Origin: an uncultured Gammaproteobacteria bacterium
Lineage (GTDB): Bacteria > Patescibacteriota > Microgenomatia > Levybacterales > GWA1-39-11
Length of the DNA: 64,000 bases
NCBI GenBank assembly: GCA_964641355.1
Contig: CAZXND010000002.1
Coordinates: 70,615-134,614, forward strand
Reading direction: 5' to 3'
Shown here: positions 28,901 to 48,139 of the stretch, piece after piece
Layout: each line of letters starts with the position of its first letter
Position numbering within the stretch: position 1 is the first letter of the stretch
Translations under genes and position numbers: made by a program
Notes under the pieces: model-generated
The model's database searches: none
The model's input: the letters and a program-made list of their open reading frames with translations, nothing else
Told to the model about the DNA's origin: nothing

Positions 28901-29426
28901 GTCTATAATTTAAATCTTCTAATTTTCGCTCACCTATAACTTTTGCCGGAACTCCACCAACTACCTCTTTTGGTTTGACATCTTTAGTTACTACTGCACC
29001 TGCACCTATAACTGAACCCTTTCCAAGGGTAACTCCTGGAAGGATTATCGATCTTGGCCCAATAAAAACATAATCCTCTATGATAACAGGTGAAAAAACA
29101 GCTTTAAAATTTTCATCATTAACGTCATGTTCACCATTATAGATCATGACTTCAGAAGCGATGTCAACATGATCACCTATTTTCAAAACATCTCTACCAT
29201 CAAGAGTAGCACCTTCTCCAATAATAGTATCCTTTCCGATAGAAATCCCCGATGGATTGTAAAAAATCGCTCTAGTGTGAATTGAAGATCCACGACCAAT
29301 TTTCATTCCTGCAAGTCGATAAAAGGCTCTTCTAAGATGGTGTGAAGGAAAGTGACCAATTAAATTTACTATAAAAACTTCAAATTCAAGCATAATAGTT
29401 TCAATTCTATGAGACACCCTATTCAT
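28875..29426 (-). CDS. Hexapeptide-repeat (LbH) sugar O-acetyltransferase
   Basis: 183 aa. Repeated [LIV]GxxxxI hexapeptides: [43 protein letters not shown]. Confidence 0.8.
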
Positions 29427-30588: not shown

Positions 30589-31099
30589 CTTCGAGTCTAT
30601 CCGAAGCTATTCCCAGTAACTCTTCAGCATCCTTTTTTGTAGAATTTGATATACAAATTATCGCTTTTGACTCTTTTTTTACCCACTCAAGCTTTCTTTT
30701 TTGAACTGAAATAATTCTTTTATTTGTCTCATTCGGTACTTTTAGAACAACAAGATCATATAGGATGGTCACTTTTTTCGCATTCTTTACAGGAGGTTCT
30801 GTCCAATCCGAAGAAATATAAATATCTAAATCCCCTAAAAAAATTTCTATTGGAAGAACATGAAGTCTATTCCACAAAAAATCCAGTAATACTGGAGGAA
30901 ATTTTAAGAACTTAAATTTAACATTTATACCCTTCAATCTTTCCAATATTTCATAGCTAGGTTTTTTTCTAAGACTTGAAAACATCAAGATATATTCGTT
31001 TCTACCATCACTCTTAACAAGATTTGAAACCAACTCAATAAGAAGATTACTCACTCCCCCATTATAAATAGCTTGACTCATATCGATACCAATTACCAT
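30566..31099 (-). CDS. GT4 N-terminal-domain-only protein (possible remnant or split glycosyltransferase)
   Basis: 177 aa. Resembles only the Glyco_trans_4 N-terminal Rossmann half (MVIGIDMSQAIYNGGVSNL...) and ends at the inter-domain linker (VVYPGIF). The next gene starts a new complete GT4. Confidence 0.4.
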   Translation of the reverse strand: MVIGIDMSQAIYNGGVSNLLIELVSNLVKSDGRNEYILMFSSLRKKPSYEILERLKGINVKFKFLKFPPVLLDFLWNRLHVLPIEIFLGDLDIYISSDWTEPPVKNAKKVTILYDLVVLKVPNETNKRIISVQKRKLEWVKKESKAIICISNSTKKDAEELLGIASDRLEVVYPGIF

Positions 31100-32065: not shown

Positions 32066-33001
32066 TTATTCTGCTCTTACTACGAAAACGTCGCCTAATC
32101 TTATTTTATTTGATAACCACTCAAAGGGATAAAATAATAAGAAAAAGAAAAGATTATGTATTAAATCAATTTTTACTCCCATAAGATCATTAATAAAATA
32201 TTGGATACTCCCCGGAATACCACCTGCGGCACAATATTCAACTTTGAGATTTTTAAATCCACTTTTTACAAGAAGAGTCTTCAATGTTTTAGGTGAAAAA
32301 ATGTATAAATGCCTCGGAGAATCCAAGTTGTACCAATAAGACCCGAACAATTTGCACAAAAAACTTTCAGAATTAGGAGTTCCAATTAATAATTGTCCTT
32401 CCTTTTTCAGTTTTTTTCTTATTAACTTCAAACATAATTCAGGATTATCTATATGTTCAATTACATGATAAAGTCTTACTGAATCAAAAAATCTATCTGG
32501 AAATTTTCTAATATCTTTATAACTTCCTAAGTTAACATTTTTAAGTCCCCTTTTTTTTGCATTATCTACCGCCCACTTATCTACATCAAGACCATAAGCT
32601 TTCCACCCAAGTTTTTTAAGAGACAACAGAGTATCCCCAGCACCACAACCTAAATCTAATACCTTTCCATTAATAACTGAGTTAGGAATCGCTGGAACGT
32701 TCTGAATAAATTTTGAAATAATAAACGCAAAAAAATTCTGTGAATAATATTGACTAAACAAATAACTTCTAAGTTTTTGTGCTACACCTTGAGATTTATT
32801 TATATTATATGCATAATAATTTTTACTCGGGTAATATTTTTTAAGTTCGGAAGAACCAGGCTGAGGAGATAGTAGAAGCAGACCACATTTTTCACATTTT
32901 AATATAGAAAATCTGCCTTTAATTCCATGCATCCGATCCTCTGAGTTGTAGATCTTTTTTAGATTATTTGACTTACAAACAATACATTTTTGAATTTTCA
33001 T
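32066..33001 (-). CDS. Class I SAM-dependent methyltransferase with N-terminal Cys4 zinc ribbon
   Basis: 311 aa. CIVCKS...CEKCG zinc-ribbon, then VLDLGCGAGDTL SAM motif I. Embedded in the glycan locus, so likely a sugar or glycan O-methyltransferase. Confidence 0.7.
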   Translation of the reverse strand: MKIQKCIVCKSNNLKKIYNSEDRMHGIKGRFSILKCEKCGLLLLSPQPGSSELKKYYPSKNYYAYNINKSQGVAQKLRSYLFSQYYSQNFFAFIISKFIQNVPAIPNSVINGKVLDLGCGAGDTLLSLKKLGWKAYGLDVDKWAVDNAKKRGLKNVNLGSYKDIRKFPDRFFDSVRLYHVIEHIDNPELCLKLIRKKLKKEGQLLIGTPNSESFLCKLFGSYWYNLDSPRHLYIFSPKTLKTLLVKSGFKNLKVEYCAAGGIPGSIQYFINDLMGVKIDLIHNLFFFLLFYPFEWLSNKIRLGDVFVVRAE

Positions 33002-33002
33002 G

Positions 33003-34028
33003 TTAGTCTTTATACTCTTGTGTCGTTTTAAATAAAGAATAGTAATAGTAATTAAAATTTGGACTTTTTTTAATAAATTTATTTATCTCTTTATCACTTA
33101 CCTTTCTGATCTTTTTTTGTATTATTTTTCTTTTTAAAAAACTATGTCTAATATTAACCATATTCCATAAATAAGCAGCTAGTGCCGATTTCACCAAACC
33201 AAATTTTAACCGTATTGCAAAATTTATAATAATTACAAATTGTACCAACAAGAAAATGGGGAACACTGTTATCAGGTTTCTTGTTCCAAAGTTTTTAATA
33301 TATGAACAATTCATGTTTTTAAAAGTTAGATAGATTCTTCTTTCATATTTGTATTTATCAGATGAAATAGTATCCCCCCCCACCACATGGTAAATCAATG
33401 ACCTTGGTTCATAAATAACTTTATAACCAGAGAGCCATACCCTAAAACATAAATCACTTTCCTCAAAAAAAATGAAAAAATCTCTATCAAAAACTCCAAT
33501 TTTATTGAGCACTTTTCTTGGGAATATAATACATGCTCCTTTAGCGGAAAAGATTTCACGTTTTACATTATATTTTTTTAGATCATAAGGTTTTCTATAA
33601 CCAAAATGATAAAGAAACCCAGTAAAACTGATATAAGATCCAACTTCATCAATTAAATTTGACTCTCTCATTACCCTAATTTGTGGCTGTATACAACCAA
33701 TTTTAGGATCTCCTTTAAAATCACTAATCATCTCCGTCAAAAAATTAGGAGTCACTTTAGTATCATTATTTAAGAAAAGAATATATTCTCCCTTTGCTAA
33801 TTTAAATCCTGAATTATTTCCCTGAGCAAACCCCTGATTTTTTTTATTTTCCAACAAACGGACTTTAGGAAAATTATTTTTGATATAAGGTACAGAACCA
33901 TCTGTTGATGCATTGTCGACAACGATTATTTCATAATTTGGATAATTAATTTTACTGAGGGAAGTTAAGCAATTTTTCAGGAATTTTTTTCCATTCCAAT
34001 TTAAAATTACTATAGAAACTTTTGGCAT
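33003..34028 (-). CDS. Glycosyltransferase family 2 with C-terminal TM
   Basis: 341 aa. VSIVILNWNGKKFLKNCLTSL...VVDNASTDGS. C-terminal hydrophobic segment ITVFPIFLLVQFVIIINFAI. Confidence 0.8.
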   Translation of the reverse strand: MPKVSIVILNWNGKKFLKNCLTSLSKINYPNYEIIVVDNASTDGSVPYIKNNFPKVRLLENKKNQGFAQGNNSGFKLAKGEYILFLNNDTKVTPNFLTEMISDFKGDPKIGCIQPQIRVMRESNLIDEVGSYISFTGFLYHFGYRKPYDLKKYNVKREIFSAKGACIIFPRKVLNKIGVFDRDFFIFFEESDLCFRVWLSGYKVIYEPRSLIYHVVGGDTISSDKYKYERRIYLTFKNMNCSYIKNFGTRNLITVFPIFLLVQFVIIINFAIRLKFGLVKSALAAYLWNMVNIRHSFLKRKIIQKKIRKVSDKEINKFIKKSPNFNYYYYSLFKTTQEYKD

Positions 34029-34035
34029 TGTGGAC

Positions 34036-35064
34036 TTATATCAATTTCTTGCTCCAACTTTTGGGAAGATCTTTCGTCTCAAGCTCTAATCCTTCTTTAA
34101 GATATTTGAATTTTTGTGGCCCTTTTTCTCTTGCCCATTCGACCATTTTTTCTATCCCCTCTTCAAAGTTAACTGATGTTTTATACTTTAAAAACTTTAC
34201 GGCTTTATGGTTGGTACAAAAAGCATCTTTTACCTCTTGAGGTCTAAGAGGAAGAAATTTTGGCTTCAATCTTGCAGGAACGGATCCATCTCTAAAAAAT
34301 TTTTTTAATATTATTGATGATAGTTCATTAATAGTATACTCTTCAGTAGGACCTATGTTGATAACTTCTCCATCACAATTTTTATCAAAACCCGCTTTTG
34401 CGATATAAGGGGTAAAGTCGTCAATATATGTAAATGCCCTCTTCTGCTTCCCATCTCCATAAATATAATAGTTTTTGTTATTTAGGAGGCAATTAATAAA
34501 GATTGCTATGACATTTCTATAAGGATCAGCTAGATTCTGCTTAGGACCGTAAACATTATGGGGTCTAATAATAACATATTTAAATCCGTGAACTTTGGCT
34601 AGTATTTGAGTTGCATCTTCCATAGCGGACTTTGCGATCCCGTATATGTCTTCAGGCAGTTTTAACATATCTTCTGAGAAAGGTGCGCCCTGTCCACCAT
34701 AAACACTCATTGAACTAGTCAATACAATTTTTTTAAGACCATACTTTATTGCTGGTATTATAAGATACATATATGCCAAATAATTTCGCTCCGTAGAATT
34801 AAGAGGAGTAAACTGACTTCTTCCCTCTGATGCATCGGCAGCAAGGTGGTAAATTAAATCCGGTTTTATTCTTTTAATATACTCGTTAGTTTTTTTTCTA
34901 TCTCTAAGGTCCAATTTTGTAAATTTAGCTTTCTTGTTTAGATTTTCTAGATATCCACCCGAAAGATCGTCAACAGCATAGACTATACTTGCTTTATCCT
35001 TTACTAGATAATCAACTAAATGACTACCCATAAATCCTGCAGCACCAGTAACAAGAATTTTCAT
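34036..35064 (-). CDS. NAD-dependent nucleotide-sugar epimerase/dehydratase (extended SDR)
   Basis: 342 aa. MKILVTGAAGFMGSHLVDYL Rossmann GxxGxxG. YxxxK catalytic motif (YGIAKSAME). Confidence 0.75.
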   Translation of the reverse strand: MKILVTGAAGFMGSHLVDYLVKDKASIVYAVDDLSGGYLENLNKKAKFTKLDLRDRKKTNEYIKRIKPDLIYHLAADASEGRSQFTPLNSTERNYLAYMYLIIPAIKYGLKKIVLTSSMSVYGGQGAPFSEDMLKLPEDIYGIAKSAMEDATQILAKVHGFKYVIIRPHNVYGPKQNLADPYRNVIAIFINCLLNNKNYYIYGDGKQKRAFTYIDDFTPYIAKAGFDKNCDGEVINIGPTEEYTINELSSIILKKFFRDGSVPARLKPKFLPLRPQEVKDAFCTNHKAVKFLKYKTSVNFEEGIEKMVEWAREKGPQKFKYLKEGLELETKDLPKSWSKKLI

Positions 35065-35094: not shown

Positions 35095-37128
35095 TTATTT
35101 TTTGTGCAACAAATTTTTCTTATTTAGATAAATCAATGTAAAGATAACACTAATTATAGAAATTAGCGAGATTATTCTCCCATAAAAATAGTAGTCTTCT
35201 AGTACGAAATAGATTTTTAACTGATGACTACCTTGATCAACATCAAAACTATTAAGATTATTGAAGTTCTTTGAATAGTAAGTCTTATTATTCTCCACAG
35301 CTATCCAATAAGGGCTGAAGGATTCGGAAAAAATTAATTTATCTGACTTATTTAAATTTAAGTTTACTTGATATAAATAAGGGGAGATCATTTTATAAGA
35401 TGGTTCCTTACTGTTAATATCATCTAAAATATAAAAATGATTTTTTCTTTTGGATGTTTGAAATACAGCTATTTTGCCATATCCATAAATTCTTTTAAGA
35501 TAAACGTTCTTTTCTAGTCTCTTAATCAAAGACTCGTATAACTTTTCATCATATTTTCTATCCTTCATAAAAATCTCTCCCAAAGAATCGTAAGGAACAA
35601 TTACATATTCAATACCTAATTCTTGAAGTTTTTTTTGCGATGAAGAGCTTGAAAGAATTTTTACTATTTTCTGCGGATCAGTCTCATGAAAAAGCGGAGA
35701 GGCTTCTACTGAGGGGTGAATATTAGAGTAGTAGGAAAATCTTTGTTGTCTTGGAATCCAAAGAGTTCTAAAAAAATCATGCTGATTATACAAAAAGCTT
35801 TTTAGTTTAATATATTCTTGAGGAATCTCCTTTTTTTTAAATGTTCCAGAGAGTCCATTGAATACCCCTGGAAGGATCAAAAAGCTCCAAATAAGAATAA
35901 ATAGTATTGGAACAAAATTTTTTAGATTATTTACTCTTAAATCCATAATTCTTTGTAAAGAGTATGGGATCAAAATAGTAGTGGAAATAATTACCAATAT
36001 GTAGAACTTAGATGAGTCTCTAAAAAAAACAAATCCTGGCACCTTAGAAAAAAGGAAAATATAAGATTCCCCTAAGGGAAAATTTGAACCCTTCGAAAAA
36101 AAAGCACCTATTAGAAATAACAATCCAAAATACATAATCATGATGAACTCATTTTTCTTTTTAAGAGGCGAGAGTATTAAGCCTAAAAGTGCAAGAGCTG
36201 GAAGAATTAGAAATTCACCCTTCATAAATGAGACTTTTCCAAAAATATTTTCAGGCCAATTTGGGTGTAATAACGAAATAGTCTGAGGAAGACCAGCAAA
36301 ACTTAAAAATTTCACTATTCCAATTCCCGTATACGATTCTCCAAAATTTCCACTAAAACTTTGCCTTGATAAGAAGTAAGGAAGCAGCCAACTCATATGA
36401 AACATGCATGTTAAAAAAAGAGGAATAAAAAACGCCCAAAAAAACCTTAAAAAATTGAAGGTATTAAAAAAGGAATATAATAAGAAGTAAACAATACCCG
36501 CAATCAAACTAATATACGCGACTCTTGGATCAAATATTACTTGCAGTGCCAGAGCAAGAGATAAAAGTAATGATAACTTTATCCTAATTCTTTTATTTTC
36601 TGAATTTATAACATTTAAGATGCACCCCACAACTAAGGGAGTTATCGAATAAGCTAAAAGGTAACCCATTTGCCCTCCATCCGCTATCATTAATACATAA
36701 GTATTTGTGGAAAAAATTAATATGCCAATGACTCTCGTCCATAATTTATTTTTAATAAGAACGATATTAGAGAGAAAATAGCTAGACAAAATTGAAAGAA
36801 TTATAAATAAACCAAACCAAAAAAACTTGTATGTTACTGTCCAAGGTACACCTAGTAAATTGACAGGAAAATGTGAAAAATTCTGATAAATTTGGAGAAA
36901 ATAAGTTTGATTTATCCCCCCCAATCCATTTGATTGCCAAGCATTCCATGACGGAACTATTAGACTGAATTCTTTTATAGTTTCGTTATAAAAATATGGC
37001 CAATCTCCCCCAATAATAAACTCGTGATCAAACCAATGAATATAGATAATTCCAAAAATTATAATTGAGATAATTAGCACTAATGAGTTGGTGAAGTTTT
37101 TTAAGAAAGTGTCTTTATTTAATTTCAT
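35095..37128 (-). CDS. Large polytopic membrane protein, member of a locus-specific paralog family (GT-C/YfhO-like candidate)
   Basis: 677 aa. N-terminal motif IIGGDWPYFYNE matches the GGDxxRLYFYDP motif of the three larger paralogs. Multi-TM core and a C-terminal TM anchor ...YGRIISLISIISVIFTLIYL. Confidence 0.45.
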   Translation of the reverse strand: MKLNKDTFLKNFTNSLVLIISIIIFGIIYIHWFDHEFIIGGDWPYFYNETIKEFSLIVPSWNAWQSNGLGGINQTYFLQIYQNFSHFPVNLLGVPWTVTYKFFWFGLFIILSILSSYFLSNIVLIKNKLWTRVIGILIFSTNTYVLMIADGGQMGYLLAYSITPLVVGCILNVINSENKRIRIKLSLLLSLALALQVIFDPRVAYISLIAGIVYFLLYSFFNTFNFLRFFWAFFIPLFLTCMFHMSWLLPYFLSRQSFSGNFGESYTGIGIVKFLSFAGLPQTISLLHPNWPENIFGKVSFMKGEFLILPALALLGLILSPLKKKNEFIMIMYFGLLFLIGAFFSKGSNFPLGESYIFLFSKVPGFVFFRDSSKFYILVIISTTILIPYSLQRIMDLRVNNLKNFVPILFILIWSFLILPGVFNGLSGTFKKKEIPQEYIKLKSFLYNQHDFFRTLWIPRQQRFSYYSNIHPSVEASPLFHETDPQKIVKILSSSSSQKKLQELGIEYVIVPYDSLGEIFMKDRKYDEKLYESLIKRLEKNVYLKRIYGYGKIAVFQTSKRKNHFYILDDINSKEPSYKMISPYLYQVNLNLNKSDKLIFSESFSPYWIAVENNKTYYSKNFNNLNSFDVDQGSHQLKIYFVLEDYYFYGRIISLISIISVIFTLIYLNKKNLLHKK

Positions 37129-40100
37129 ATTTTTTACACAGAGTTAAGATTAACAATATTACCGTAGCTAAAAGAGAGATCAAAGAAACAACCACGGTAA
37201 TATAAAATACTTTTTGAGTTTCAAATTCAATAATTAAGTTGTAGGATTTTTTACCATCAGCAAAGCCTTTTGGTATCAACCATCCATTAGAGTAACCATT
37301 AGCCACAAAGTGATTCTTTTCAAGAAGCGAATCACGACCCAATGTTTCAAACATATTTTGGTCTAATAATGAATCATTCGACTTTTCCTGTTTAATCTTA
37401 CCATTATAATAAGACTCAACCACCTTACCTCTAACTTTCTTTTTTGGATCGATATAGATCTTCCACTTCTCACTAAATGCATCAGAAAAAATTAGAAGAT
37501 ATTCTGAGTCAACCCCCTCAACTTTTATTTTATATTTTGTAGGATTTATTTTCACAAATGTGATTTTAGGAGTTTTGGAGAATAATTTATAATCACTTTT
37601 CTTTTTCACTACAATATCGGGATGATACGGAAGTACTTTTGCATAAAAATTACGGAAGATAGGTTGAGCTTTTTCATCTTCCGAGCTCATAACTAATAAG
37701 GCATTTTTGTAATCCTTCAAGGATAGGACTATATTGAATTTTGTCCAATCCTTAGAAATTCTTTTTTCGTTAAAAATGTAATGAAACTTAGGATCGGCCA
37801 ATTTATTTTTATCCTGTCTTTTTTGAGAATACATTCCAACATCAAAAACCTTACCGTAACTTTGATACTCAAAGGAAATTAAATAGTAGGAATTATTTTT
37901 AAATCCATTTATGTACTTAAGCCCCTTAATAATATTTCTTTTTTTAATATTAAGACTCTTAATCGCCAGATTTGTATCACCGATAATTTCATCATCGCTT
38001 TTTGGGGTAAATAAAATGTCATCAGTAATTACATCTTCACTGTCAATAATAAGTTGGATATATTTGTCGCTTTCTAAGTTAAGGTCACCTAAATCAACCA
38101 TCCCTTTAACTTTCTGAGGATTATTAGAGTAAATATTGCTACCGTTGTATACCAATTTAATTCTGCTTATATCGAACTTACCTTCATCTCTAACGAATAA
38201 TTTTGCTTTTCCTCCATTTTTTGAAATGTACTCAAGTATTGATGGATCATATTCTTTTGTTATTGTTTTTTTTAAATAATATGAGTTCAATTTCTCAAAA
38301 ATCTTGCTCAAATATGCTCTGTCGTGGGATGACTTCATACTCTTTTGAATTACAATCATTACCTTAATTTTACTATTCAACAAAAACTGTCTAATTTTAT
38401 CCTTTTTTTGAATCTTCCAGCCAAGATCTTTTTCTGATTTTTCGATGCTCTCTATAGCTGCACTAACTCCTCTTGAATATCTTGATAAACTTGCCTCCCA
38501 GCTATTAAATTTCCTTCCTCCTAAACCATTTATAGTTTTTGGGTCTGTCCAAAAATTTATTAACTCTTGATTAGAGCTTATATTTCTTTGAACAGGGATC
38601 TCCCCTTCCCACCTTTCAAGTTCTGAAATTCTTTTCGCACTGTAGAATAAAAGATAATCTATATATGAATCTGTATCTGATTTAATTTTATTCAAATAAT
38701 ATTTCTCTTTATAAAAAACCACTGGATAAAAAATTGAATTTAGCTTCCATTTGGCAAAAGGATAATTTACAGAAATTGGATAATCTTTAATTATCCTACT
38801 GTAGATATCAACTTTTGAAAGTTGACTGACAGAAATGTCTTTATTTGTGCTGGAGTCTATTGCAATACGATCATTTGAAAATGAATAAAAAGGGGAAATG
38901 ACTTCCCAATCCAAAACTGGATCCAGAGAGCTTATAGTTTTACTGGAAATGTAAAAGTGAGGAAGATAATTTTCTTTATTTAAAGAAAAAACTGAATAGT
39001 CACCATTTTTAAAGAGTAATTTCGCATTAAGTTTTGATATTAAACTTTTATATGTCTGAGCATTCGGAAAAAAATCGTTTATATATGCAAAAGGGAAATT
39101 AGGAAAATTGGAATAAATGTACTTATCAGAATTAAAGACTAGATATCTAATATTTAGTATAGAAAATAAATTTTTAATGTCCTCATACTCTTTATTAACA
39201 ACAAGTTTAATAAAGACGTCTTTATAAGATAAAAAATCTTCGTAACCAGCAAAATCTTTTTTTCCTGTTAAATAGGCTATCGTAGATGGACCCATATAAA
39301 CTCCGTCATTAACTCCCCTGATAACTTGGTACGCTGGGTCTGTAAACGGAAGCGTAACAATTTTCCCATCGATAGATAACTTTCTAATTTTAGCTATAAA
39401 TCTTTCATATTTGGGATCCATTTTCATTACTGATCTAATATTCTTTGACTGCCAAAGAGGACGATTAATGATTTCACCTTTAATAAAAGGTGTAGAAAGC
39501 AAAAAAAGATAAATAATGAGCACTAAAACGAATAAATCAAAACCTTTTTTTAAAAAAATACTTTTCTCAGAACTCGTAATTCTTCTACGTATTAAAGCGA
39601 GAGAAGCACCAAGAACTAAAGCATAATAAAATGCTAAAGAGTATTGCCACTGTGCATAAAAATTCCTAAACATGGAAAAGCCCGGGATACTAAAGAGTTC
39701 TGAGTAAAATTTAAATCCAAGATTAGTAATATTTGCAGAAGAAAAAAATAAAAGAACAAGAAAAATAAAAGAAAGGATGAGTAGAAGCCTACCTTTGTTA
39801 AAGAAAAAAGAGATTAGAATTATTATTGGATAAATAATTAATAAATCATGATAATATTTAATTTCAACCCACTGAGGAAGTCCTAATAAGTTTTTACTTA
39901 ATTTAATATTTGGTGCAATTGCAACAAAATAACTTAACCCTCTATTGAATTTTCCTTCTGAAGAGAAAATTGTTTTATTTACTACACTTCCAGAAGTAAA
40001 TATATCTAAAATTTGTGGGAAATAATGAAAAATATGGACGCCAAGAAAAAGAACAAGTCCAACTAATAGAGGCTTAATTTTTATTTTTTTTCTAAGAATA

Positions 40101-40765
40101 ACTTTTGCATATATTATTAAAAAAAGAAAAGATATGGGGTAAAAAGCTACGATCGCAGGGGCTGAAACAATGCTAAAATTAGGAGAAAAGAAAAATGAAA
40201 TGATAATTATGATTAAGAGATATAAAAATCTAGATGTTTTAAAATACCTAACAAATAAATAAAAAACTAGAGGATTTAAAAAAATTTGATTTCTACTTAA
40301 TAAAACGTGCTCCCATCCGTCAATCAATGCGGGAAAAAATGCGTAGGCTATTCCACAGAATAAAGAAATTAGAAAAATATCATTTAATTTATTTCTCTTT
40401 TCACCTGTTAATATCTCTTTAGCTGAAAGAAATGTGAAAAGAAAAGAAGCGCTAAGTGTTACTCCATGAAAGATAGATATTAGTAAAAAAGGAGAGAGAA
40501 AAAATCTAAAAATAGCCAGTAACGCAATAAAGGGAAGTGAGAAATAGTAGATATTCTCAAGGCCAAATGAAGATGCTGAAATACTGAATAAGGATGCACT
40601 TTTAAGATAAGAAACTGGATCATAAAAATACAACCTACTAGAATCGCCTCCAATATCCATCTCGCCTGGTTTTAGCCAAAGAAAAGGAATTATTAAAAAT
40701 ATTACGGTTATTAGTAAAACAACAATTTTTTTTTGCATTTTACTCTTTCCATTGCTGAATAACAC
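37115..40765 (-). CDS. Giant polytopic membrane protein, paralog family member (GT-C/YfhO-like candidate) with a roughly 600-aa extra extracytoplasmic domain
   Basis: 1216 aa. N-terminus IPFLWLKPGEMDIGGDSSRLYFYDPVSYLKS is shared with ORFs 43441..45852 and 45842..48139. C-terminal NGYSNGWLIP...TM anchor is also shared. Confidence 0.5.
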   Translation of the reverse strand: MLFSNGKSKMQKKIVVLLITVIFLIIPFLWLKPGEMDIGGDSSRLYFYDPVSYLKSASLFSISASSFGLENIYYFSLPFIALLAIFRFFLSPFLLISIFHGVTLSASFLFTFLSAKEILTGEKRNKLNDIFLISLFCGIAYAFFPALIDGWEHVLLSRNQIFLNPLVFYLFVRYFKTSRFLYLLIIIIISFFFSPNFSIVSAPAIVAFYPISFLFLIIYAKVILRKKIKIKPLLVGLVLFLGVHIFHYFPQILDIFTSGSVVNKTIFSSEGKFNRGLSYFVAIAPNIKLSKNLLGLPQWVEIKYYHDLLIIYPIIILISFFFNKGRLLLILSFIFLVLLFFSSANITNLGFKFYSELFSIPGFSMFRNFYAQWQYSLAFYYALVLGASLALIRRRITSSEKSIFLKKGFDLFVLVLIIYLFLLSTPFIKGEIINRPLWQSKNIRSVMKMDPKYERFIAKIRKLSIDGKIVTLPFTDPAYQVIRGVNDGVYMGPSTIAYLTGKKDFAGYEDFLSYKDVFIKLVVNKEYEDIKNLFSILNIRYLVFNSDKYIYSNFPNFPFAYINDFFPNAQTYKSLISKLNAKLLFKNGDYSVFSLNKENYLPHFYISSKTISSLDPVLDWEVISPFYSFSNDRIAIDSSTNKDISVSQLSKVDIYSRIIKDYPISVNYPFAKWKLNSIFYPVVFYKEKYYLNKIKSDTDSYIDYLLFYSAKRISELERWEGEIPVQRNISSNQELINFWTDPKTINGLGGRKFNSWEASLSRYSRGVSAAIESIEKSEKDLGWKIQKKDKIRQFLLNSKIKVMIVIQKSMKSSHDRAYLSKIFEKLNSYYLKKTITKEYDPSILEYISKNGGKAKLFVRDEGKFDISRIKLVYNGSNIYSNNPQKVKGMVDLGDLNLESDKYIQLIIDSEDVITDDILFTPKSDDEIIGDTNLAIKSLNIKKRNIIKGLKYINGFKNNSYYLISFEYQSYGKVFDVGMYSQKRQDKNKLADPKFHYIFNEKRISKDWTKFNIVLSLKDYKNALLVMSSEDEKAQPIFRNFYAKVLPYHPDIVVKKKSDYKLFSKTPKITFVKINPTKYKIKVEGVDSEYLLIFSDAFSEKWKIYIDPKKKVRGKVVESYYNGKIKQEKSNDSLLDQNMFETLGRDSLLEKNHFVANGYSNGWLIPKGFADGKKSYNLIIEFETQKVFYITVVVSLISLLATVILLILTLCKKYEIK

Positions 40766-41075
40766 CTAATAAAAGGAAAAGGAAGCACCACACTGCCGCC
40801 TTTTCAGTAGAGAAAGATGTACCAGAAACAATGTAGCTAAGAAACATCGTAAACAACATAACAAAACTGTAAATAAAAGTTATCTTACTATTTGACGGGG
40901 TAGCGATGTAAATAAAAATATAGATTGCTAAAATCCCAAAAATTATCAAATCTGAATTAATCTTAATAAAGATTGAATCAAATAAGAGTGCTAGTAATAT
41001 TAAAAAAAGCAAAAAACTACGAAATTCCTTAGTTATTTTTTTAAGTTTTTTATAAAATTTATTAATTCGTTTCAT
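40740..41075 (-). CDS. Small multi-TM membrane protein, paralog of 43131..43448 (GtrA-like candidate)
   Basis: 111 aa. Shares segment order and residues with the 105-aa ORF: LIIFGILAIYIFIYI / RIFTILTLYLFLISI, and EKAAVWCFLFLLLGVIQQWKE / ERVAVFVYLFLVIAVFQKFKEL. Confidence 0.4.
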   Translation of the reverse strand: MKRINKFYKKLKKITKEFRSFLLFLILLALLFDSIFIKINSDLIIFGILAIYIFIYIATPSNSKITFIYSFVMLFTMFLSYIVSGTSFSTEKAAVWCFLFLLLGVIQQWKE

Positions 41076-41802
41076 TCTTTTTTTTAATATATCTCAATAC
41101 TTTACCCGGATTACCGCCGAAAACAGAAAATCTGGGAACATTTTTTCTCACAATAGTATTTGCTCCAATTACCGAACCGCTCTCAATAATAACATTATTG
41201 AATATAACAGCACCTGCACCTATCCAAACATTATCCTTAATCTCTATGTTCACATACTGCACCTTTTGTCTTATTATTGGAGTCTTAGTATCCTCAAACA
41301 TGTGATTCAACGTGTAAAATCTAACTCCATCTGCAATAAGAACATTATTACCAATCTTTAAACTACCTCCATTTTGTGCTAAATAACAGTCCTTACCAAT
41401 AACAACATTATTACCTATCTTGAGTCCATGGTTAGTAGATGCGAGAGTAGATCTCTCTCCAATTATAAAATTATCCCCAATTACAATAGGACCATCAGCC
41501 AAAATAGACACATCATCCTTTATATTAATATTGCTCCCCATTCTTATATTTGATGGGTGTTTAACCTTAAACCTTTTACCTATCAAAACTCGCTTTCCAG
41601 ATTTAATAAACACGTGTGAGATAAATCCCTTTACTATACTTAAAAAAAGACCCGTTCCTCCTGATAAAAACAAAGTCACAAGCAGATCGCCCACTATCGA
41701 TTTAAAAAGATCTTTATTATTTTTTACTCTGTAGTATTTTTGTATTGATTCCATCAAATTTATTGCGTTAATTATAACAAACCAAATATTTAAAACAATC
41801 AA
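41062..41802 (-). CDS. Hexapeptide-repeat acyl/acetyltransferase with N-terminal hydrophobic membrane anchor
   Basis: 246 aa. First 70 aa hydrophobic (two helices). Then LbH repeats IGDNFIIGERSTLA, IGNNVVIGKDCYLA, IGNNVLIADGV, IGAGAVIFNNVIIESGSVIGANTIV. Confidence 0.7.
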   Translation of the reverse strand: MIVLNIWFVIINAINLMESIQKYYRVKNNKDLFKSIVGDLLVTLFLSGGTGLFLSIVKGFISHVFIKSGKRVLIGKRFKVKHPSNIRMGSNINIKDDVSILADGPIVIGDNFIIGERSTLASTNHGLKIGNNVVIGKDCYLAQNGGSLKIGNNVLIADGVRFYTLNHMFEDTKTPIIRQKVQYVNIEIKDNVWIGAGAVIFNNVIIESGSVIGANTIVRKNVPRFSVFGGNPGKVLRYIKKKNETN

Positions 41803-41829
41803 GGATTGTGCTATTCTAAAAAAAATTAG

Positions 41830-43134
41830 ATGACCAAAATTAAAGTTTTTATCGTTTTATTTATCTTAGTAGTTGGATTAATTTTAAGACTTAACAACTA
41901 CTATATCTATCCCCAGAGAGGCGCCTCAAGTGATGAATATACATATTCATTTCTAGGCATAAGCTTAATCAATAAACATTATCCAGAGTCATGGTCCAAT
42001 TTAAACGCATATCCCAACCTTTACGATTTGACCATCGATCATTTGTATTTTCCAATGGTATACCCTTATTTTGATCACCCCCCTTTGAATGGTCTGCTTG
42101 TGGGAGCATGGTCAATAATAAACGGACAAAATAACTATAGAGAGATTGATCTTAAGACAATAAGACTTATCCCAATTTTTTTATATCTAATATCCGCGAT
42201 ATTAGTTTTCTTAATAGCTTTCAGGTTATATGGTTATCGCGTAGCATCAACGTCTCTTCTAATATTTTCAGCATCAACAGTGTTTGCAATGAATCAGAGA
42301 GTTGTATTCGCTGAAAACCTATTAACTCCTATATTTCTCGGAGCTATGTATTTATATATTCGCACTAGTAATTTAACTCTAAAAAAAGGTGTGACCTTGG
42401 GAATTCTATCAGGATTAGCTTTTTGGACAAAAGAAGTAGGAATAATCGTTTTTATCACCTTATTATTTTTGATGTTAAAAGATGTTAAAAAAATTAAACC
42501 TATTTTGATTTTTGTTATGATATTTTTGATTTTTTTTCTAGGATATTTTTTTTACGGAAACATATACGATTGGGACTTATTCTGGAAAATAATCTCAATC
42601 CAATCAGCAAGAAAAATCGGTCCAGAAACAATATTGCTCCTATTATCAAAACCTATAATTGTAAATAAGTTGTATTTTGATGGGTGGTATTTTCTCGGAT
42701 TTGTCTCTCTTTTCATTGGACTCACTGACATTAAAAAATATGGCCTAATTGTAATACCTGCATTCCTTTATTTTTTACTTATGGTCTTCTCTCTCGCCAA
42801 AGAAGGAGAAATGGGATGGTATATGATTCCTATGTTTCCATTTATGTCGATTATCATTTCTAAAATGACAACTGATGGACTTAAAAATGCAAATTGGTAC
42901 ATTTTTTTGATAATAATTTTTGTTGGGCTTTTTCAAATCAAATATCTGTATGAAGCTAACTTTGGATTAACACAAAATCAATTTAGAATAATTATGCTTA
43001 TAATGTTAGGACCTTTACTTTTAGCTCAGGCGTTTAAGTCTAAGAGAATATTTACTCAAATAAGTTTTTTTTGGTTTTATCTGCTAATTATTGGGACAAT
43101 TTTTCTAACCTATACATATATCCATCCCGCCTAG
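41830..43134 (+). CDS. Polytopic membrane glycosyltransferase, GT-C fold (ArnT/PMT_2-like, GT39/GT83-like)
   Basis: 434 aa with about 11 TM segments. First external loop SSDEYTYSFLGISL carries the DE..Y motif typical of ArnT/PMT-family GT-C enzymes. Confidence 0.55.
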   Translation: MTKIKVFIVLFILVVGLILRLNNYYIYPQRGASSDEYTYSFLGISLINKHYPESWSNLNAYPNLYDLTIDHLYFPMVYPYFDHPPLNGLLVGAWSIINGQNNYREIDLKTIRLIPIFLYLISAILVFLIAFRLYGYRVASTSLLIFSASTVFAMNQRVVFAENLLTPIFLGAMYLYIRTSNLTLKKGVTLGILSGLAFWTKEVGIIVFITLLFLMLKDVKKIKPILIFVMIFLIFFLGYFFYGNIYDWDLFWKIISIQSARKIGPETILLLLSKPIIVNKLYFDGWYFLGFVSLFIGLTDIKKYGLIVIPAFLYFLLMVFSLAKEGEMGWYMIPMFPFMSIIISKMTTDGLKNANWYIFLIIIFVGLFQIKYLYEANFGLTQNQFRIIMLIMLGPLLLAQAFKSKRIFTQISFFWFYLLIIGTIFLTYTYIHPA

Positions 43135-43448
43135 AGCTCTTTAAATTTCTGAAAGACCGCAATAACTAAAAAAAGATACACAAAAACAGCAACTCTTTCA
43201 CTGAATGGCACTATCTGTCCAGGATTAATAAACTCAACTAAATTTGTAAAAATAAATAAAACAAAAGAATAAAAAATAAGCATCATTGAAAGAACTATTG
43301 TCATATTAGCAGTAATTTTTTTAATAGATATTAAGAATAAATATAGTGTTAGTATGGTAAAAATTCTTAAATCAGAACTTTCTCTGAAAATTAGCACTTC
43401 AAGTACGATAATTATAAAAGTCGATAAAATATAAAATAATTTACTCAT
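43131..43448 (-). CDS. Small multi-TM membrane protein, paralog of 40740..41075 (GtrA-like candidate)
   Basis: 105 aa, 3-4 predicted TM segments. Sequence similarity to the 111-aa ORF as listed there. Immediately downstream of paralog 43441..45852, with a 8-nt overlap suggesting coupling. Confidence 0.4.
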   Translation of the reverse strand: MSKLFYILSTFIIIVLEVLIFRESSDLRIFTILTLYLFLISIKKITANMTIVLSMMLIFYSFVLFIFTNLVEFINPGQIVPFSERVAVFVYLFLVIAVFQKFKEL

Positions 43449-45852
43449 TTTTAAATAACAGTAGTCCGTAGAGAAAAAGACATAATAGAGTGAGGATAGA
43501 CACCATAAAAGTAATATAAAACGTTTGCTGGCCCATCATCTCGATGATCAAATTATAATTTTCTTTTTTACCATCAATATACCACGCATTAGAATATCCG
43601 TTAACCATGAAATGGGAATCATCAAAAATAGACTTCATTCCAAAAGTTTCAAATGGCTTATCGTCAACAAATTGATTTGCTGGTTTTTCTTCATTTACTA
43701 TTCCGTTTAAATAAATATTATTTTTGTCTATAAGATATGCTTTTGGTTTGTCTTCAAATATTTTCCAGTGGCTGTTGTATGCTTCTTGAAAAACAATAAT
43801 AACAGGCTCCTTAACACCCAAAATACTTAACTTATATTTAGTAGGGTTGATTTTTTTATAAAATATTTTTATCATGTGTTTCCCTCTCTTCCCTTTCTTT
43901 CCACAAATATTTTTAATGGTTAGGGATTTACAAATAGAATTTTCAATATAAACACTTCTTATGTTTTCAGTTTTCTCTCCGTTTTCTAAAGGAAAAAACG
44001 ACAATGCACCATAATACGGCTTACTATATTTTTTATTTGCGTCGTAGGTTAAGATATTAGACGCGGGATAAAAATGAGGTAAATAGTCAGAATTATCTAG
44101 CTCATACAAATGATAATCGCCTGAACTAAATATTTTTTTCTCAGCAATTTTTTCTACAAAACTTATTGATTTACTTGAAGCGGGTACATTTGTATAACCA
44201 TATGGAAATTCAGGAAAATATTTATCAGATATATTATTATCTTGATTAAGAAGAATATACCTAACTTGAAGCAATTCAAGCATCCTCTTCATAAGAGAAA
44301 AGTTTTTCTTTTCAACTAAAATTTTAAAGACCTGAGAATAAGGGTCCATATGTTGATAGCCAGCAAAATCGTTTCTACCAACCAACAACGAAGTCATCGA
44401 TTGACCTACATATACACCATTATTTGATCCTCCTACTAAATTGTATGCAAAATCAGTAAAAGGAACATGCAACATTTTACCGTCACTAGGTAACTCATAT
44501 ATGTATTTAAGTAATTTTTTATAATGAGCATCCATTACGATTATCGAACTCAAACCTTTCGATCCTCTTTGACTTACGCGAATCACACTACTATCTAAAA
44601 TAGGTATGCTTCTTAAGAGTATGAGAATAAAAATTATTAATATTAACGAGATCATATATTTTTTTTTGAGAGCGCTAAGAATTTTTATTATTGATAGACC
44701 AAAGAGAAGCGAGTAGAAAAAGGTGTAAACCCATTGCCACTGACCAGAAAAATTTCTAAACATTCCAAATCCAGGAATCAAAAAAAATACCCTATAAAAC
44801 TCTCTACCTAATCTTGTTATATTTGCTGATACTAAAAAAAGTGTCATAAGGAAGAAAATACATAATAAGATATACAAATTATTTTTTTTTGAGAAAATTA
44901 ACCCAAAAATGATTATAAAAGGAGCAATAAATAAACTTAAAGCAGGTAAGTAAAACTCCGGAACAAGAAGAATACTCGCACTAACCTTAGAGAACTGAAC
45001 AATTGAATCAAAATAACTTAGACCTATATTGGTCCCAGATATGCTTTCAAAAGTTCTAGAATTTAGCTCTGTACCTTTACTAAAAAGCGTAGAAAGTAAA
45101 GGTATAACATGAAACAAGTGCAAAAAGACGAAAATAATACCACTAACTAGAAGCCCTTTCATAGGGAACTTCTTTTTAAGTACGAGTTTTGTGTAAAAAA
45201 ACAAAAAAGATAAAATTATTGGGTAAAAGGCATATATAGGAGGGTTGTAAATAGCAAAATTAGATGAAAATATGAATGACACAACAAGAATAACCCATAG
45301 ATATTTAAATTTATTTTCCTGAACGTACTTAAGCAAAAGATAAAAGAATAGTGGATTTAAAAAAACTTGATCATGTGTCACGAGCGCATATTTCATGTTA
45401 TTAAGAATCGCCGGAGATAGAACATAAAAGAAAGACGCTACTATCGACCCAGACCATTCCCCCAAAGTCATCTCTTCCACCGACTTACGTTGTAAAAACT
45501 CCTTAATTATTAAAAAAATAAATACAAAACCGAATGCGAGTTTTATTCCATTAAAGATATTAATAACTATTGTTGATGATACAAATATAGACTTGATTAA
45601 AAACACAAATAAAATATAAGGTAAAAAATACTGATTGTAGGAAACCGTCCCAGTCCCCCATGGAACAACGCTATATATAGCAAAAGACTTAAGATTTGAG
45701 ATAGGATCATAAAAAAACAACCTATGACTATCTCCTCCTAGTTCTAACTCACCCTCTCGAAGCCATAAAAAGGGGATAAAAAAGAGAGTTAAAAAAATAA
45801 AAATAATAACTAAACGTTTATATTTAAACCTTTTTAATTTTTTATTTTTCAT
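43441..45852 (-). CDS. Large polytopic membrane protein, paralog family member (GT-C/YfhO-like candidate)
   Basis: 803 aa. IPFLWLREGELELGGDSHRLFFYDPISNLKS N-terminal motif. C-terminal VNGYSNAWYI...TM anchor. Confidence 0.5.
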   Translation of the reverse strand: MKNKKLKRFKYKRLVIIFIFLTLFFIPFLWLREGELELGGDSHRLFFYDPISNLKSFAIYSVVPWGTGTVSYNQYFLPYILFVFLIKSIFVSSTIVINIFNGIKLAFGFVFIFLIIKEFLQRKSVEEMTLGEWSGSIVASFFYVLSPAILNNMKYALVTHDQVFLNPLFFYLLLKYVQENKFKYLWVILVVSFIFSSNFAIYNPPIYAFYPIILSFLFFYTKLVLKKKFPMKGLLVSGIIFVFLHLFHVIPLLSTLFSKGTELNSRTFESISGTNIGLSYFDSIVQFSKVSASILLVPEFYLPALSLFIAPFIIIFGLIFSKKNNLYILLCIFFLMTLFLVSANITRLGREFYRVFFLIPGFGMFRNFSGQWQWVYTFFYSLLFGLSIIKILSALKKKYMISLILIIFILILLRSIPILDSSVIRVSQRGSKGLSSIIVMDAHYKKLLKYIYELPSDGKMLHVPFTDFAYNLVGGSNNGVYVGQSMTSLLVGRNDFAGYQHMDPYSQVFKILVEKKNFSLMKRMLELLQVRYILLNQDNNISDKYFPEFPYGYTNVPASSKSISFVEKIAEKKIFSSGDYHLYELDNSDYLPHFYPASNILTYDANKKYSKPYYGALSFFPLENGEKTENIRSVYIENSICKSLTIKNICGKKGKRGKHMIKIFYKKINPTKYKLSILGVKEPVIIVFQEAYNSHWKIFEDKPKAYLIDKNNIYLNGIVNEEKPANQFVDDKPFETFGMKSIFDDSHFMVNGYSNAWYIDGKKENYNLIIEMMGQQTFYITFMVSILTLLCLFLYGLLLFKNE

Positions 45853-48139
45853 TTGTATTTAAAAAAGATATTATTATTAATGATATTAAACTACCCAAGA
45901 CAACCAAGGTTATTATCCAACCGAACCAAAAGTATTTTTGATCTTCTAGATAAATCGAGCCTTCTATTTTTTTATTTGCATTGTTTTGAGCAGGGATAAC
46001 CCAACCATTTGCATATCCATTAATAATCATGTGTTTTTCGATCTGATCATTTCCAATCTTAACCTTCCATCCGTTGTGATAGGAGTGCTGTAAGACGATT
46101 AGCATATCATTGGTGAGATTACCGGAAATTATAAACTTATAACTCACAGGGTTAACTTCTATAAATTCTAAATTTATCTTAGACTTGTGATAATTCCTAC
46201 ATAGACTTCCGATAAAACTGCAATTTTTTTTGTTAACAAACACACTTGCCATACTTTTTCCGTATTTTAATCTGTCACTTGTGTAAACATCGTTCGGAAT
46301 AAAGATTGTAGGGTTGTAAAATTCACTTCTTAATTCATAAATTGTGTAGTGTCCCTTTTTAAATAAAAATTTTAATGGAAAGTTACTTAAGTATTTTTTA
46401 TACTCTTTTTGCGTCTTAGGCATAGAAGTCATCATATACCCATAAGAACCGGGGTTAAACCCTTTTTCATAAGCCATAGGGTCATTATTATAAAGCACGT
46501 ATCTGACATTTAACGTATTTAGAATTTGAATAAGCTTTGCATAATTTTTTTCTCTCGTGTACTTTAAAAACTCTTCTGCGTAGGGAGAGTTGTTTTTATA
46601 ACCTAAATCTTGATATCCCACGAAACTATATTTGCTAGTTAAATGCAATATTGTTGATGGCCCTTCATACGCCCCTCCATTTTTACCGCTAATAACCTGT
46701 CTAAAAAAATCTGTTAATGGAAATACTATGATCTTTCCATCTTTTGGTAATTTATCTATAAATGAAAGAGTTTCTATATAATTAGTATCCATTTCAAAAA
46801 CAGTTCTTACAGAATTGGATCCCCGAATATAAACATTATTGATGACATCACCAAACAAAAGAGAATGTCCAATAACTATGAGTATAATAATTAAACCAAA
46901 GAAGAAAAGTTTGACATAAACCACTTTTAACTTTTCAAAAATATAATAGACTGAGAAACTCAATACAATTGAGTAAAAAAAGATATATACGTACATCCAC
47001 TGAGTATAAAAGTTGCGAAACATAGCAAAACCTGGAAGATAAAATAGTTTTTTATAAATTTCATATCCCAAATCAGTAATATTGGCTGTAACAAGAAAAA
47101 AAGTAACAATAAGGAATATAAAAATTAGTAAAAACTCTTTTCTCTTATTAATAAACAATCCAACTGTTACTATTAAAGGAAAGACTACAACACCTACAAT
47201 CGAGAACTCTCTTTTTTCGGGCGGGAGAAATAAACTTATTGCAGCCTTTCCATGTTGATGAATTGCTTCAAAATAACCAACTCCCTCGGCTAAAATTGAT
47301 CTTTTATCTACTACCAATGTGTTCCCAATACTCCCTTTTTCGAAAAATGAAAAAATTTCCCCCAATAAGTGAAATGCGTGTAATAAAATAAAGAAAACAG
47401 TTCCTACTACGAGCCCTTTCCAGGGAAAAGGGTACTTACCAAAAAATAAGAAATATAGAATTAAGAAAAATATTGATATGGGGTAAAAAGAGAATAACGG
47501 CGGAGCTGAACCAAGAAGACTGAAATTTGTTGAGAAAACAAATGAAATTAATATTGCAATCCATAAATAGATATATTTTTTTGTAGTGAAAAACTTAAGT
47601 AAAAAGAAAAAAACTGCTGGGTTTAGGAAAATTTGATCATGTGTAAAAAGAGGTCTATCCCAAAAAAATGCCATATTTAGAGAAGTAAAAGAGACGGTAT
47701 AGAAAATTCCTGAAATGATGCTTGAATATTTTGCTTTCCATTTATCAAACTTCGTTAGCTGAGAAATTAACGTAAATGAAATAAAGTAAACAAATATAAA
47801 CCCACCTGAAAGCTTTATAGAGTTAAATAAATTTATAGTAGATGTTGTCGATAAAAAATTTCTCAAAATACTGATAACGATTACGTAGGGGATGTAAAAG
47901 TACTTTGGTTCCACTATTCCCTTCCCTTGTCCTGAAATATCAAAAACTGCAGTATATTTTAAGAAACTTATAGGGTCATAAAAATATAGTCTATTAGCAT
48001 CGCCTCCCAAATTTAATTCTCCAGGCTTTAACCAAAAGAGAGGCACCACAAAAAAAATAATTGCGATCGAAATAAAGACTTTATTTTGCAGAATTAATTT
48101 TGTTATTTTTTTACCAATCATTTTTGAATAATTATACAT
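45842..48139 (-). CDS. Large polytopic membrane protein, paralog family member (GT-C/YfhO-like candidate)
   Basis: 765 aa. VPLFWLKPGELNLGGDANRLYFYDPISFLKY N-terminal motif. C-terminal INGYANGWVI...TM anchor. Confidence 0.5.
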   Translation of the reverse strand: MYNYSKMIGKKITKLILQNKVFISIAIIFFVVPLFWLKPGELNLGGDANRLYFYDPISFLKYTAVFDISGQGKGIVEPKYFYIPYVIVISILRNFLSTTSTINLFNSIKLSGGFIFVYFISFTLISQLTKFDKWKAKYSSIISGIFYTVSFTSLNMAFFWDRPLFTHDQIFLNPAVFFFLLKFFTTKKYIYLWIAILISFVFSTNFSLLGSAPPLFSFYPISIFFLILYFLFFGKYPFPWKGLVVGTVFFILLHAFHLLGEIFSFFEKGSIGNTLVVDKRSILAEGVGYFEAIHQHGKAAISLFLPPEKREFSIVGVVVFPLIVTVGLFINKRKEFLLIFIFLIVTFFLVTANITDLGYEIYKKLFYLPGFAMFRNFYTQWMYVYIFFYSIVLSFSVYYIFEKLKVVYVKLFFFGLIIILIVIGHSLLFGDVINNVYIRGSNSVRTVFEMDTNYIETLSFIDKLPKDGKIIVFPLTDFFRQVISGKNGGAYEGPSTILHLTSKYSFVGYQDLGYKNNSPYAEEFLKYTREKNYAKLIQILNTLNVRYVLYNNDPMAYEKGFNPGSYGYMMTSMPKTQKEYKKYLSNFPLKFLFKKGHYTIYELRSEFYNPTIFIPNDVYTSDRLKYGKSMASVFVNKKNCSFIGSLCRNYHKSKINLEFIEVNPVSYKFIISGNLTNDMLIVLQHSYHNGWKVKIGNDQIEKHMIINGYANGWVIPAQNNANKKIEGSIYLEDQKYFWFGWIITLVVLGSLISLIIISFLNTNEK

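Follow-up and report, generated by a model that had tools for sequence, protein, structure and literature searches.

Divergent AftD-like GT-C proteins and small four-helix membrane proteins in a conserved Microgenomates gene cassette

Introduction

What are four very large, related membrane proteins doing side by side, together with two small ones, in a genome of the candidate phyla radiation (CPR)? The CPR bacteria, or Patescibacteria, have genomes of less than 1 Mb and envelopes that are poorly understood. The window analysed here is a stretch of 64,000 nucleotides (assembly GCA_964641355.1, contig CAZXND010000002.1, positions 70,615 to 134,614), and the genes in question lie between its positions 35,095 and 48,139, where the G+C content is 29-31%. 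The original prediction had tentatively read them as an uncharacterised family resembling glycosyltransferases of the C fold (GT-C), expanded in this lineage and combined with GtrA-like flippases and GT2 enzymes into several tandem modules. The six open reading frames (ORFs) were all present, on the minus strand, where that prediction had placed them; in order of transcription they are the following (TM, transmembrane).

45842..48139, minus strand: D765, D-type AftD-like GT-C protein, 765 aa; predicted N-terminal multi-TM core with GGD, extracytoplasmic domain, INGYANGW and single C-terminal TM helix
43441..45852, minus strand: C803, C-type AftD-like GT-C protein, 803 aa; modelled with TM helices within residues 2-419, alpha/beta domain at ~442-600, beta-sandwich at ~660-772 and C-terminal TM helix at 773-802
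43131..43448, minus strand: s105, small 4-TM protein of the s105 type, with a longer TM3-TM4 loop
40740..41075, minus strand: s111, small 4-TM protein of the s111 type, immediately upstream of B, with an N-terminal Lys/Arg-rich helix
37115..40765, minus strand: B1216, B-type AftD-like GT-C protein, 1216 aa from GTG
35095..37128, minus strand: A677, A-type distant paralogue, 677 aa; IIGGDWPYFYNE, PGFVFFRD and single C-terminal TM helix

The B gene starts in public gene calls at an ATG at 40738, giving 1207 aa, instead of at the GTG at 40765. Its product carries an extra extracytoplasmic insert of ~450 aa (residues ~613-1066), for which sequence searches of Pfam and the PDB returned no match. 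We consider it probable that the region is a conserved Microgenomates cassette, of the order D-C-small...small-B-A, which encodes anciently diverged AftD-like GT-C enzymes for a surface glycan together with dedicated small partners.

Homology of the four large proteins

We compared the large proteins pairwise by BLASTP with composition-based statistics; composition was tested explicitly because of the low G+C content of the region. B1216 matched C803 with 38% identity over 609 aa (E 2.5e-117), with a separate C-terminal block of 132 aa (E 1.4e-26), and D765 with 37% identity over 624 aa (E 3e-101), while C803 and D765 shared 32% identity over 816 columns (E 5e-114). The pairwise match of A677 to C803 was marginal (E 0.002). 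Two profiles were then aligned by hhalign, A1 built from 54 sequences of the C/D family and A2 from 25 orthologues of A677; they matched with a probability of 99.7% and an E-value of 5.9e-26 over 615 columns, and the GGD motif, the PGFxMFR motif and the C-terminal beta-sandwich with its TM helix all coincided in register. By these comparisons the four large ORFs are homologous, as had been proposed, B, C and D at 32-38% identity (E 1e-101 to 1e-117) and A677 as a distant paralogue found by profiles.

When 1.84 billion cluster representatives were searched exhaustively with HMMER, 5797 matched the large family at E <= 0.001; the number fell to 3645 at E <= 1e-10 and to 1002 at E <= 1e-30. These figures bear on the possibility that the similarity is compositional and that no real family exists, the region being AT-rich and the proteins rich in Phe, Tyr, Ile, Leu and Lys. 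Such an artefact is ruled out by the composition-corrected E-values, which reach 1e-117, by the 22 columns that are invariant across the 54 sequences of the C/D-family alignment, by a confident structure model (below) and by the family size, and we give it a negligible probability. The motifs on which the original prediction was built are thus shared by homology, with two corrections of detail. The N-terminal GGD block holds, but the PF(L/F)WL stretch assigned to all three larger proteins does not, since D765 reads VPLFWL; likewise the C-terminal motif is present, but (V/I)NGY does not extend to B1216, which reads ANGYSNGW.

Relationship of the large proteins to AftD

Scans of Pfam and NCBIfam returned no match for B, C and D, and only sub-threshold noise for A677 (DUF6541 at 16 bits; an MmpA model at 32 bits against a cutoff of 210). 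The YfhO model (PF09586) matched neither the window proteins nor any of the 54 family members at E <= 0.01, and one relative, P0070, bears the name 'YfhO family protein' in one NCBI record. No meaningful match was obtained when PDB sequences were searched with the A1 and A2 profiles. An uncharacterised GT-C-like family, as originally suspected, is supported by these scans, and the relationship emerged from structure and from intermediate sequences.

The AlphaFold2 model of C803, built from A1, had a mean predicted local distance difference test score (pLDDT) of 88.6 and a predicted template modelling score (pTM) of 0.91. It shows a multi-TM core with an extracytoplasmic alpha/beta domain, and the nearest solved structure is AftD, the mycobacterial alpha-(1->3)-arabinofuranosyltransferase (PF11847, formerly DUF3367; PDB 6W98/6WBX), which was among the candidates listed in the original prediction. 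AftD was the top match in both fold searches and alone covered the soluble domains and the C-terminal TM helix (604 aligned residues).

The Pfam model GT-C_AftD (PF11847) did not match A, B, C or D at E <= 0.1. Several distant relatives do pass its cutoff of 26, namely the proteins of our loci L050 (56.5 bits), L064 (40.5), L069 (34.1), L072 (28.8) and L056 (26.9), and such relatives belong to other CPR groups, to Planctomycetia, to Desulfofervidaceae and to Bathyarchaeia. The match of the A1 profile to each of the five runs from end to end, with E-values of 1e-59 to 1e-28 computed for a space of 1.8 billion sequences. Because A1 matches over their full length relatives that themselves pass the Pfam threshold, homology to GT-C_AftD holds transitively. 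Judged from the sequence bridge and the model together, the large proteins are a divergent AftD-like GT-C clade that the curated model does not reach.

The conserved motifs fall in the corresponding places. In the multiple alignment, the GGD aspartate of A, B, C and D lies in the column of the first aspartate of the AftD DTKLD loop, and 'aGGDsilDl' of the L056 AftD-like protein aligns with 'sPDTKLDL' of AftD. The GGD aspartate of C803, D41, is invariant, and R44 and D49 are nearly so. In AftD, K39 and D41 of this first loop were reported to be essential (bioRxiv 10.1101/2019.12.22.885152). At the other end, VNGYANAW of the L069 relative aligns with RVNGWQQGW of AftD, just before the re-entry TM helix; N751, N755 and W757 of this motif are invariant, and A, B, C and D each have a single C-terminal TM helix after the soluble domains. 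Both motifs singled out in the original prediction, GGD and VNGYxNxW, appear in these alignments as diverged AftD motifs. In AftD the single TM12 is followed by a four-helix bundle, TM13-16, which packs on TM8/9, binds acyl carrier protein and is unique to AftD among the Aft/Emb enzymes (bioRxiv 10.1101/2019.12.22.885152). The window enzymes lack this bundle and end after the TM12-equivalent helix.

Two fused relatives were seen in the course of the work. In L056 (13470-19343), a CPR metagenome-assembled genome (MAG) whose record title is Saccharibacteria, an ORF of 1957 aa holds two complete AftD-like units in tandem (residues ~1-1035 and 1157-1933), the first half matching GT-C_AftD with an E-value of 3e-38; this natural fusion suggests that paralogous AftD-like enzymes can act together. 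In a Gottesmanbacteria MAG (L052, 12124-16134), a protein of the A677 type, 1336 aa long, ends in a GDSL/SGNH lipase-acylhydrolase domain (Lipase_GDSL_2, E 1e-19), which hints at a coupling of the A-type GT-C protein to O-acyl modification of the glycan.

Conservation of the cassette

The large family falls into two size classes, ~750-830 aa and ~1150-1270 aa, the B-type orthologues being those of 1150-1270 aa. Close relatives with source names belong to Levyibacteria, Gottesmanbacteria, Microgenomates and other Patescibacteria. A scan limited to one genome per species brought up 72 related loci, whose ORFs we searched with the window proteins. At least 25 Microgenomates loci have [D]-C-small(1-2)-B-A as a fixed arrangement on the same strand (for example L003-L005, L007, L011-L015, L017-L021, L026 and L027). 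In L006 and L008 the cassette is duplicated as C-s-B-s-s-B-A, and in L034, L035 and L059 it is reduced to D-s-...-A. D-type orthologues stand upstream of C-type genes in L004, L005, L012, L021, L024 and L032, and A-type orthologues follow B in at least 25 loci, with A always closing the cassette.

In a neighbour-joining tree of 88 proteins, computed from their N-terminal 640 residues, the types gathered in clades (18/18 of the A type, 33/36 of the B type and 10/13 of the D type). The paralogues are therefore old and not interchangeable, and the local expansion in this lineage that had been suggested gives way to orthologous groups of long standing, whose genes keep the same order across Microgenomates. 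In one complete Levyibacteriota chromosome of 762 kb (CP066685.1, L006 and L039), the cassette with its D-type gene takes up ~2% of the sequence.

Many third-party-annotation (TPA) assembled MAG records titled 'uncultured Gammaproteobacteria bacterium' (L005, L010-L013, L019, L023-L026 and others) carry the Microgenomates-type cassette with 31-43% identity; the 'Gammaproteobacteria' labels of these records look wrong.

The small four-helix proteins

The two small ORFs are paralogous, as had been proposed (36.6% identity over 82 aa, E 2e-8, by the same composition-based BLASTP). Members of their family are 105-126 aa long, with an N-terminal Lys/Arg-rich helix followed by four TM helices. The AlphaFold2 model of s111 (pLDDT 93.9) places an amphipathic N-terminal helix at residues 2-17 and further helices at 19-36, 42-58, 63-84 and 88-110. 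The family keeps D42 without exception, and D33, E91, W96 and G104 almost so; each of these residues lies at a predicted outer helix end. Four TM helices in ~110-130 aa are also found in GtrA and SMR (small multidrug resistance) proteins, but this feature is not specific to a family. No match to GtrA (PF04138) or SMR (Multi_Drug_Res) was found in any of 44 members even at E <= 1, and the GtrA assignment of the original prediction is not supported; s105 and s111 themselves matched no Pfam or NCBIfam model, and the small-family profile (A4) had no meaningful match among PDB sequences. When 5.8 billion proteins were searched with the family profile, only 40 relatives were found, all unnamed or hypothetical, and those with a source name were Patescibacteria.

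The small genes are paired with large ones. Of the 48 small ORFs in the related loci, 41 stand directly behind a large-family gene (37 cases) or another small gene, and 29 stand directly in front of a B-type gene, with stop and start codons mostly overlapping. The s105 type stands directly after the C-type gene in 8 related loci and the s111 type directly before the B-type gene in 27. Even the most divergent small members (P0294 and P0291) overlap the stop codon of a large-family gene of the A1 type. Pairs of adjacent small genes occur in 9 loci.

A small-protein homologue fused C-terminally to an FkbM-type methyltransferase domain (Methyltransf_21, E 5e-18) was noted at L019 (2910-4028), and in L074 and L075 separate methyltransferases, one of them FkbM-type, lie within a few genes after the small gene. 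These arrangements are consistent with a cytoplasmic C-terminus of the small protein and with a link to sugar methylation.

Neighbouring genes and the glycan island

The following genes, assigned by Pfam and NCBIfam, interrupt the cassette or lie downstream of A.

41830..43134, plus strand: PMT_2-family GT-C glycosyltransferase, 434 aa (Pfam PMT_2, E 3.8e-10, 40.6 bits against a cutoff of 26.1)
41062..41802, minus strand: hexapeptide-repeat (WcaF/WbbJ-like) acetyltransferase (Pfam Hexapep, E 3e-13; NCBIfam WcaF family, E 1e-21)
34036-35064, minus strand: short-chain dehydrogenase/reductase (SDR) nucleotide-sugar epimerase/dehydratase
33003-34028, minus strand: GT2 with C-terminal hydrophobic segment
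32066-33001, minus strand: methyltransferase

The first two, which the original prediction did not include, separate s105 from s111 and divide the window cassette into two transcription units. The acetyltransferase has two N-terminal TM helices (predicted segments 1-20 and 36-58). The PMT_2 gene is missing from the corresponding position in most related loci and is an accessory gene interrupting the cassette. Stop and start codons overlap by 11 nt between D and C, 8 nt between C and s105, 14 nt between the acetyltransferase gene and s111, and 14 nt between B and A. The order SDR-GT2-methyltransferase after the A-type gene recurs in L004, L026 and L031, and these three genes (32066..35064) may belong to the functional unit of the cassette.

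The cassette lies within a glycan island that spans ~17 to 61 kb of the window and holds a Bac_transf initiating enzyme, a nucleotidyltransferase, a DegT aminotransferase, five GT4, five GT2 and six SDR epimerase/dehydratase genes, several methyltransferases and two hexapeptide acetyltransferases. GT-C genes of the PMT_2 type are found in the island at 23343-24782 and 41830-43134, and a third just upstream of it at 11006-12526. The GT2 genes with C-terminal hydrophobic segments, at 33003-34028 and 27977-28900, have generic or rhamnosyltransferase-type models as their best NCBIfam matches, and the ArnC model gave only 28 bits for one GT2, against a cutoff of 529. Scans of the window for tRNA genes and Rfam families were empty.

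Some further features of the window deserve mention. With four large proteins and three of the PMT_2 type, it holds seven GT-C enzymes in 64 kb, a striking density for an organism with a small genome. A protein of 1050 aa in the island, with ~20 predicted TM helices (24828-27980, minus strand), has only weak Wzy_C (O-antigen ligase/polymerase) and weak IctB-family matches; such a large size is unusual for a polymerase of the Wzy type, and the protein recurs in L016. At 29419-31099 (minus strand), an ORF of 177 aa (30566-31099) that has only the N-terminal domain of GT4 overlaps with the beginning of a GT4 ORF of 389 aa (29419-30588). Either one gene has been split or frameshifted here, or there may be two genes; L016, L038 and L040 have the same pair. 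A DUF4012 protein of 663 aa with two TM helices (15200-17191, minus strand) is encoded at the edge of the island, just upstream of the initiating sugar transferase. Farther away, a protein of 559 aa (8720-10399, plus strand) combines an AAA_15/AAA_21 ATPase with an OLD-like TOPRIM domain, the architecture of OLD-family nucleases and similar to Gabija GajA, and is possibly an anti-phage defence gene.

Discussion

In our reading each large enzyme has an N-terminal multi-helix membrane core, whose first loop outside the membrane bears the invariant GGD aspartate, and further an alpha/beta domain on the extracytoplasmic side, a beta-sandwich and a single membrane anchor at the C-terminus. Judged by AftD, Emb and other GT-C enzymes, their most likely activity is the transfer of single sugars from donors linked to polyprenyl phosphate, on the outer face of the membrane. 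The acceptor would be a glycan of the cell surface for which the surrounding 40-kb island is responsible, and the labour may be divided among the paralogues so that each enzyme makes another step or linkage. The small four-helix proteins would be dedicated partners of the large enzymes, and we favour for them the role of an accessory subunit in the membrane. More specifically, the small protein may be a separately encoded counterpart of the AftD TM13-16 bundle: the window enzymes have no helix beyond the TM12 equivalent, and the gene that follows codes for a membrane protein of four helices, which suggests such a split-gene arrangement. Searches did not confirm this idea: the small family had no match among PDB sequences, no fusion of a large with a small protein was found among 256 fetched relatives, and a single C-terminal TM helix without a small partner is also seen in Pfam-positive relatives from outside Microgenomates.

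How close is this cassette to known systems? The likeness to AftD, the closest known relative, lies in the order of the parts (GT-C membrane core, alpha/beta soluble domain, one or more beta-sandwich modules, re-entry TM helix), in the alignment of a first-loop aspartate and in VNG(W/Y)xxxW before the re-entry helix, besides the transitive homology. Sequence identity is, however, only ~10%, and the window proteins are 677-1216 aa long against ~1400 aa for AftD, contain no carbohydrate-binding module (CBM) or F5/8 module recognisable by sequence, and end after one C-terminal TM helix where AftD continues from TM12 into the TM13-16 bundle. Another difference is that three to four fixed paralogues stand together in an operon-like cassette that includes a small membrane protein. 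Tandem paralogous large GT-C proteins with a C-terminal extracytoplasmic domain are also found in the mycobacterial embC-embA-embB and Aft enzymes. There the C-terminal domains are of the carbohydrate-binding type, the enzymes act successively on one cell-wall polymer, arabinan, outside the membrane, and a small 4-TM protein, Rv3789, of the GtrA/SMR type is encoded nearby (in part from PMC11127046). The window proteins presumably differ in phylum and sugar chemistry, and the small proteins among them are devoid of a GtrA/SMR sequence signal. Gtr-type systems (GtrA/GtrB/Gtr*, CsbB/GtcA/YfhO and the GT136 pentofuranose systems) resemble the cassette in that an extracytoplasmic GT-C enzyme acts on a finished or growing glycan and is encoded beside small membrane proteins in a glycan locus.

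The locus has been read as a tandem of three-component Gtr-type modules, in which the small proteins would be GtrA-like flippases for a polyprenyl-phosphate sugar made by a GT2 enzyme and each large GT-C protein would have an acceptor of its own. GT-C enzymes do require a flipped lipid-linked donor (PMC11127046). The size of the small proteins and their 4-TM layout, with both ends inside, are typical of GtrA/SMR-type proteins, the small-gene pairs in 9 loci recall ArnE/ArnF-type heterodimers, and the island has the two GT2 genes with C-terminal hydrophobic segments. Yet neither GtrA, SMR nor MATE is recognisable in the small proteins, whose conserved acidic residues probably sit at the outer helix ends and not mid-membrane, and whose N-terminus is so rich in Lys and Arg that a single topology is fixed. 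Coupling of the small genes is with the large genes and not with GT2 genes. The GT2s close by have generic or rhamnosyltransferase-type models as their best matches instead of ArnC, GtrB or DPM1, and no synthase of that kind was recognised beside the cassette. The four large genes, finally, are fixed orthologous types and not interchangeable specificity modules, unlike the one serotype-specific enzyme of a Gtr system, and have no YfhO Pfam match. The modular arrangement, which the original prediction raised as a possibility, is in our view unlikely, though it is the strongest of the alternatives to the cassette of AftD-like enzymes. For the small proteins taken by themselves the balance is closer: we estimate an accessory subunit to be the most plausible role while falling a little short of an even chance, a flippase to be somewhat less plausible, and some other role to account for the remainder.

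The large proteins could instead be protein glycosyltransferases, similar to oligosaccharyltransferase (OST) or protein mannosyltransferase (PMT), which modify S-layer, pilin or other surface proteins and not a polysaccharide. The three PMT_2 genes of the window and weak TMEM260-like matches in 7/54 family members point that way. The fold searches led to AftD, the sequence homology leads to GT-C_AftD and not to the STT3 or PMT families, the C-terminal VNGYxNxW motif is common to AftD, and the neighbours (Bac_transf, Wzy_C-like, GT2, GT4) are typical of polysaccharide repeat-unit synthesis; we thus hold protein glycosylation to be improbable.

The cassette of AftD-like enzymes for a surface glycan, with dedicated partners, has findings of its own to face, and the following weigh against it. 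The curated models (GT-C_AftD, YfhO, PMT) miss 78 of 79 close family members at E <= 0.01, the sole exception being a GT-C_AftD match at E 0.0017 in one A-type protein (1/25 of the A family, 0/54 of the C/D family). The position of the essential AftD D41 is occupied in B, C and D by Leu or another hydrophobic residue in a gap-free alignment, and the active-site constellation therefore differs from that of AftD. Relatives outside Microgenomates that pass GT-C_AftD end in a single TM helix without a detectable small partner. In the window, no convincing polyprenyl-phosphate sugar synthase of the GtrB/ArnC/DPM1 type was recognised, nor any gene of the decaprenyl-phospho-arabinose pathway (UbiA-type phosphoribosyltransferase, DprE1/E2-like), which further separates the cassette from AftD. 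A bolder form of the proposal would make the cassette a self-contained, Microgenomates-specific glycan machine, in which four non-interchangeable AftD-like enzymes act in sequence, in the manner of Aft/Emb, on a CPR cell-wall polymer, and in which the small proteins are a new obligatory class of GT-C subunit, a trans-encoded equivalent of TM13-16 that gives an acidic cluster (D33, D42, E91) at the outer face. We find this version rather doubtful.

None of the close large-family members tested carries an annotation, and a literature search on DUF3367, or on arabinofuranosyltransferase with Patescibacteria, returned nothing on the large-protein family. The large family is an unannotated variant of a known enzyme class, and its recognition is an advance in annotation and no new mechanism. 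It is of relevance for GT-C annotation and for the biology of the CPR envelope, since the fixed order of the cassette across many Microgenomates implies that the surface glycan is important. Placed beside AftD, the large family acquires a biochemical role that can be tested and a residue that is a candidate for catalysis, and the small partner, if it is a true subunit, would bear on the function of the C-terminal four-helix bundle of AftD itself.

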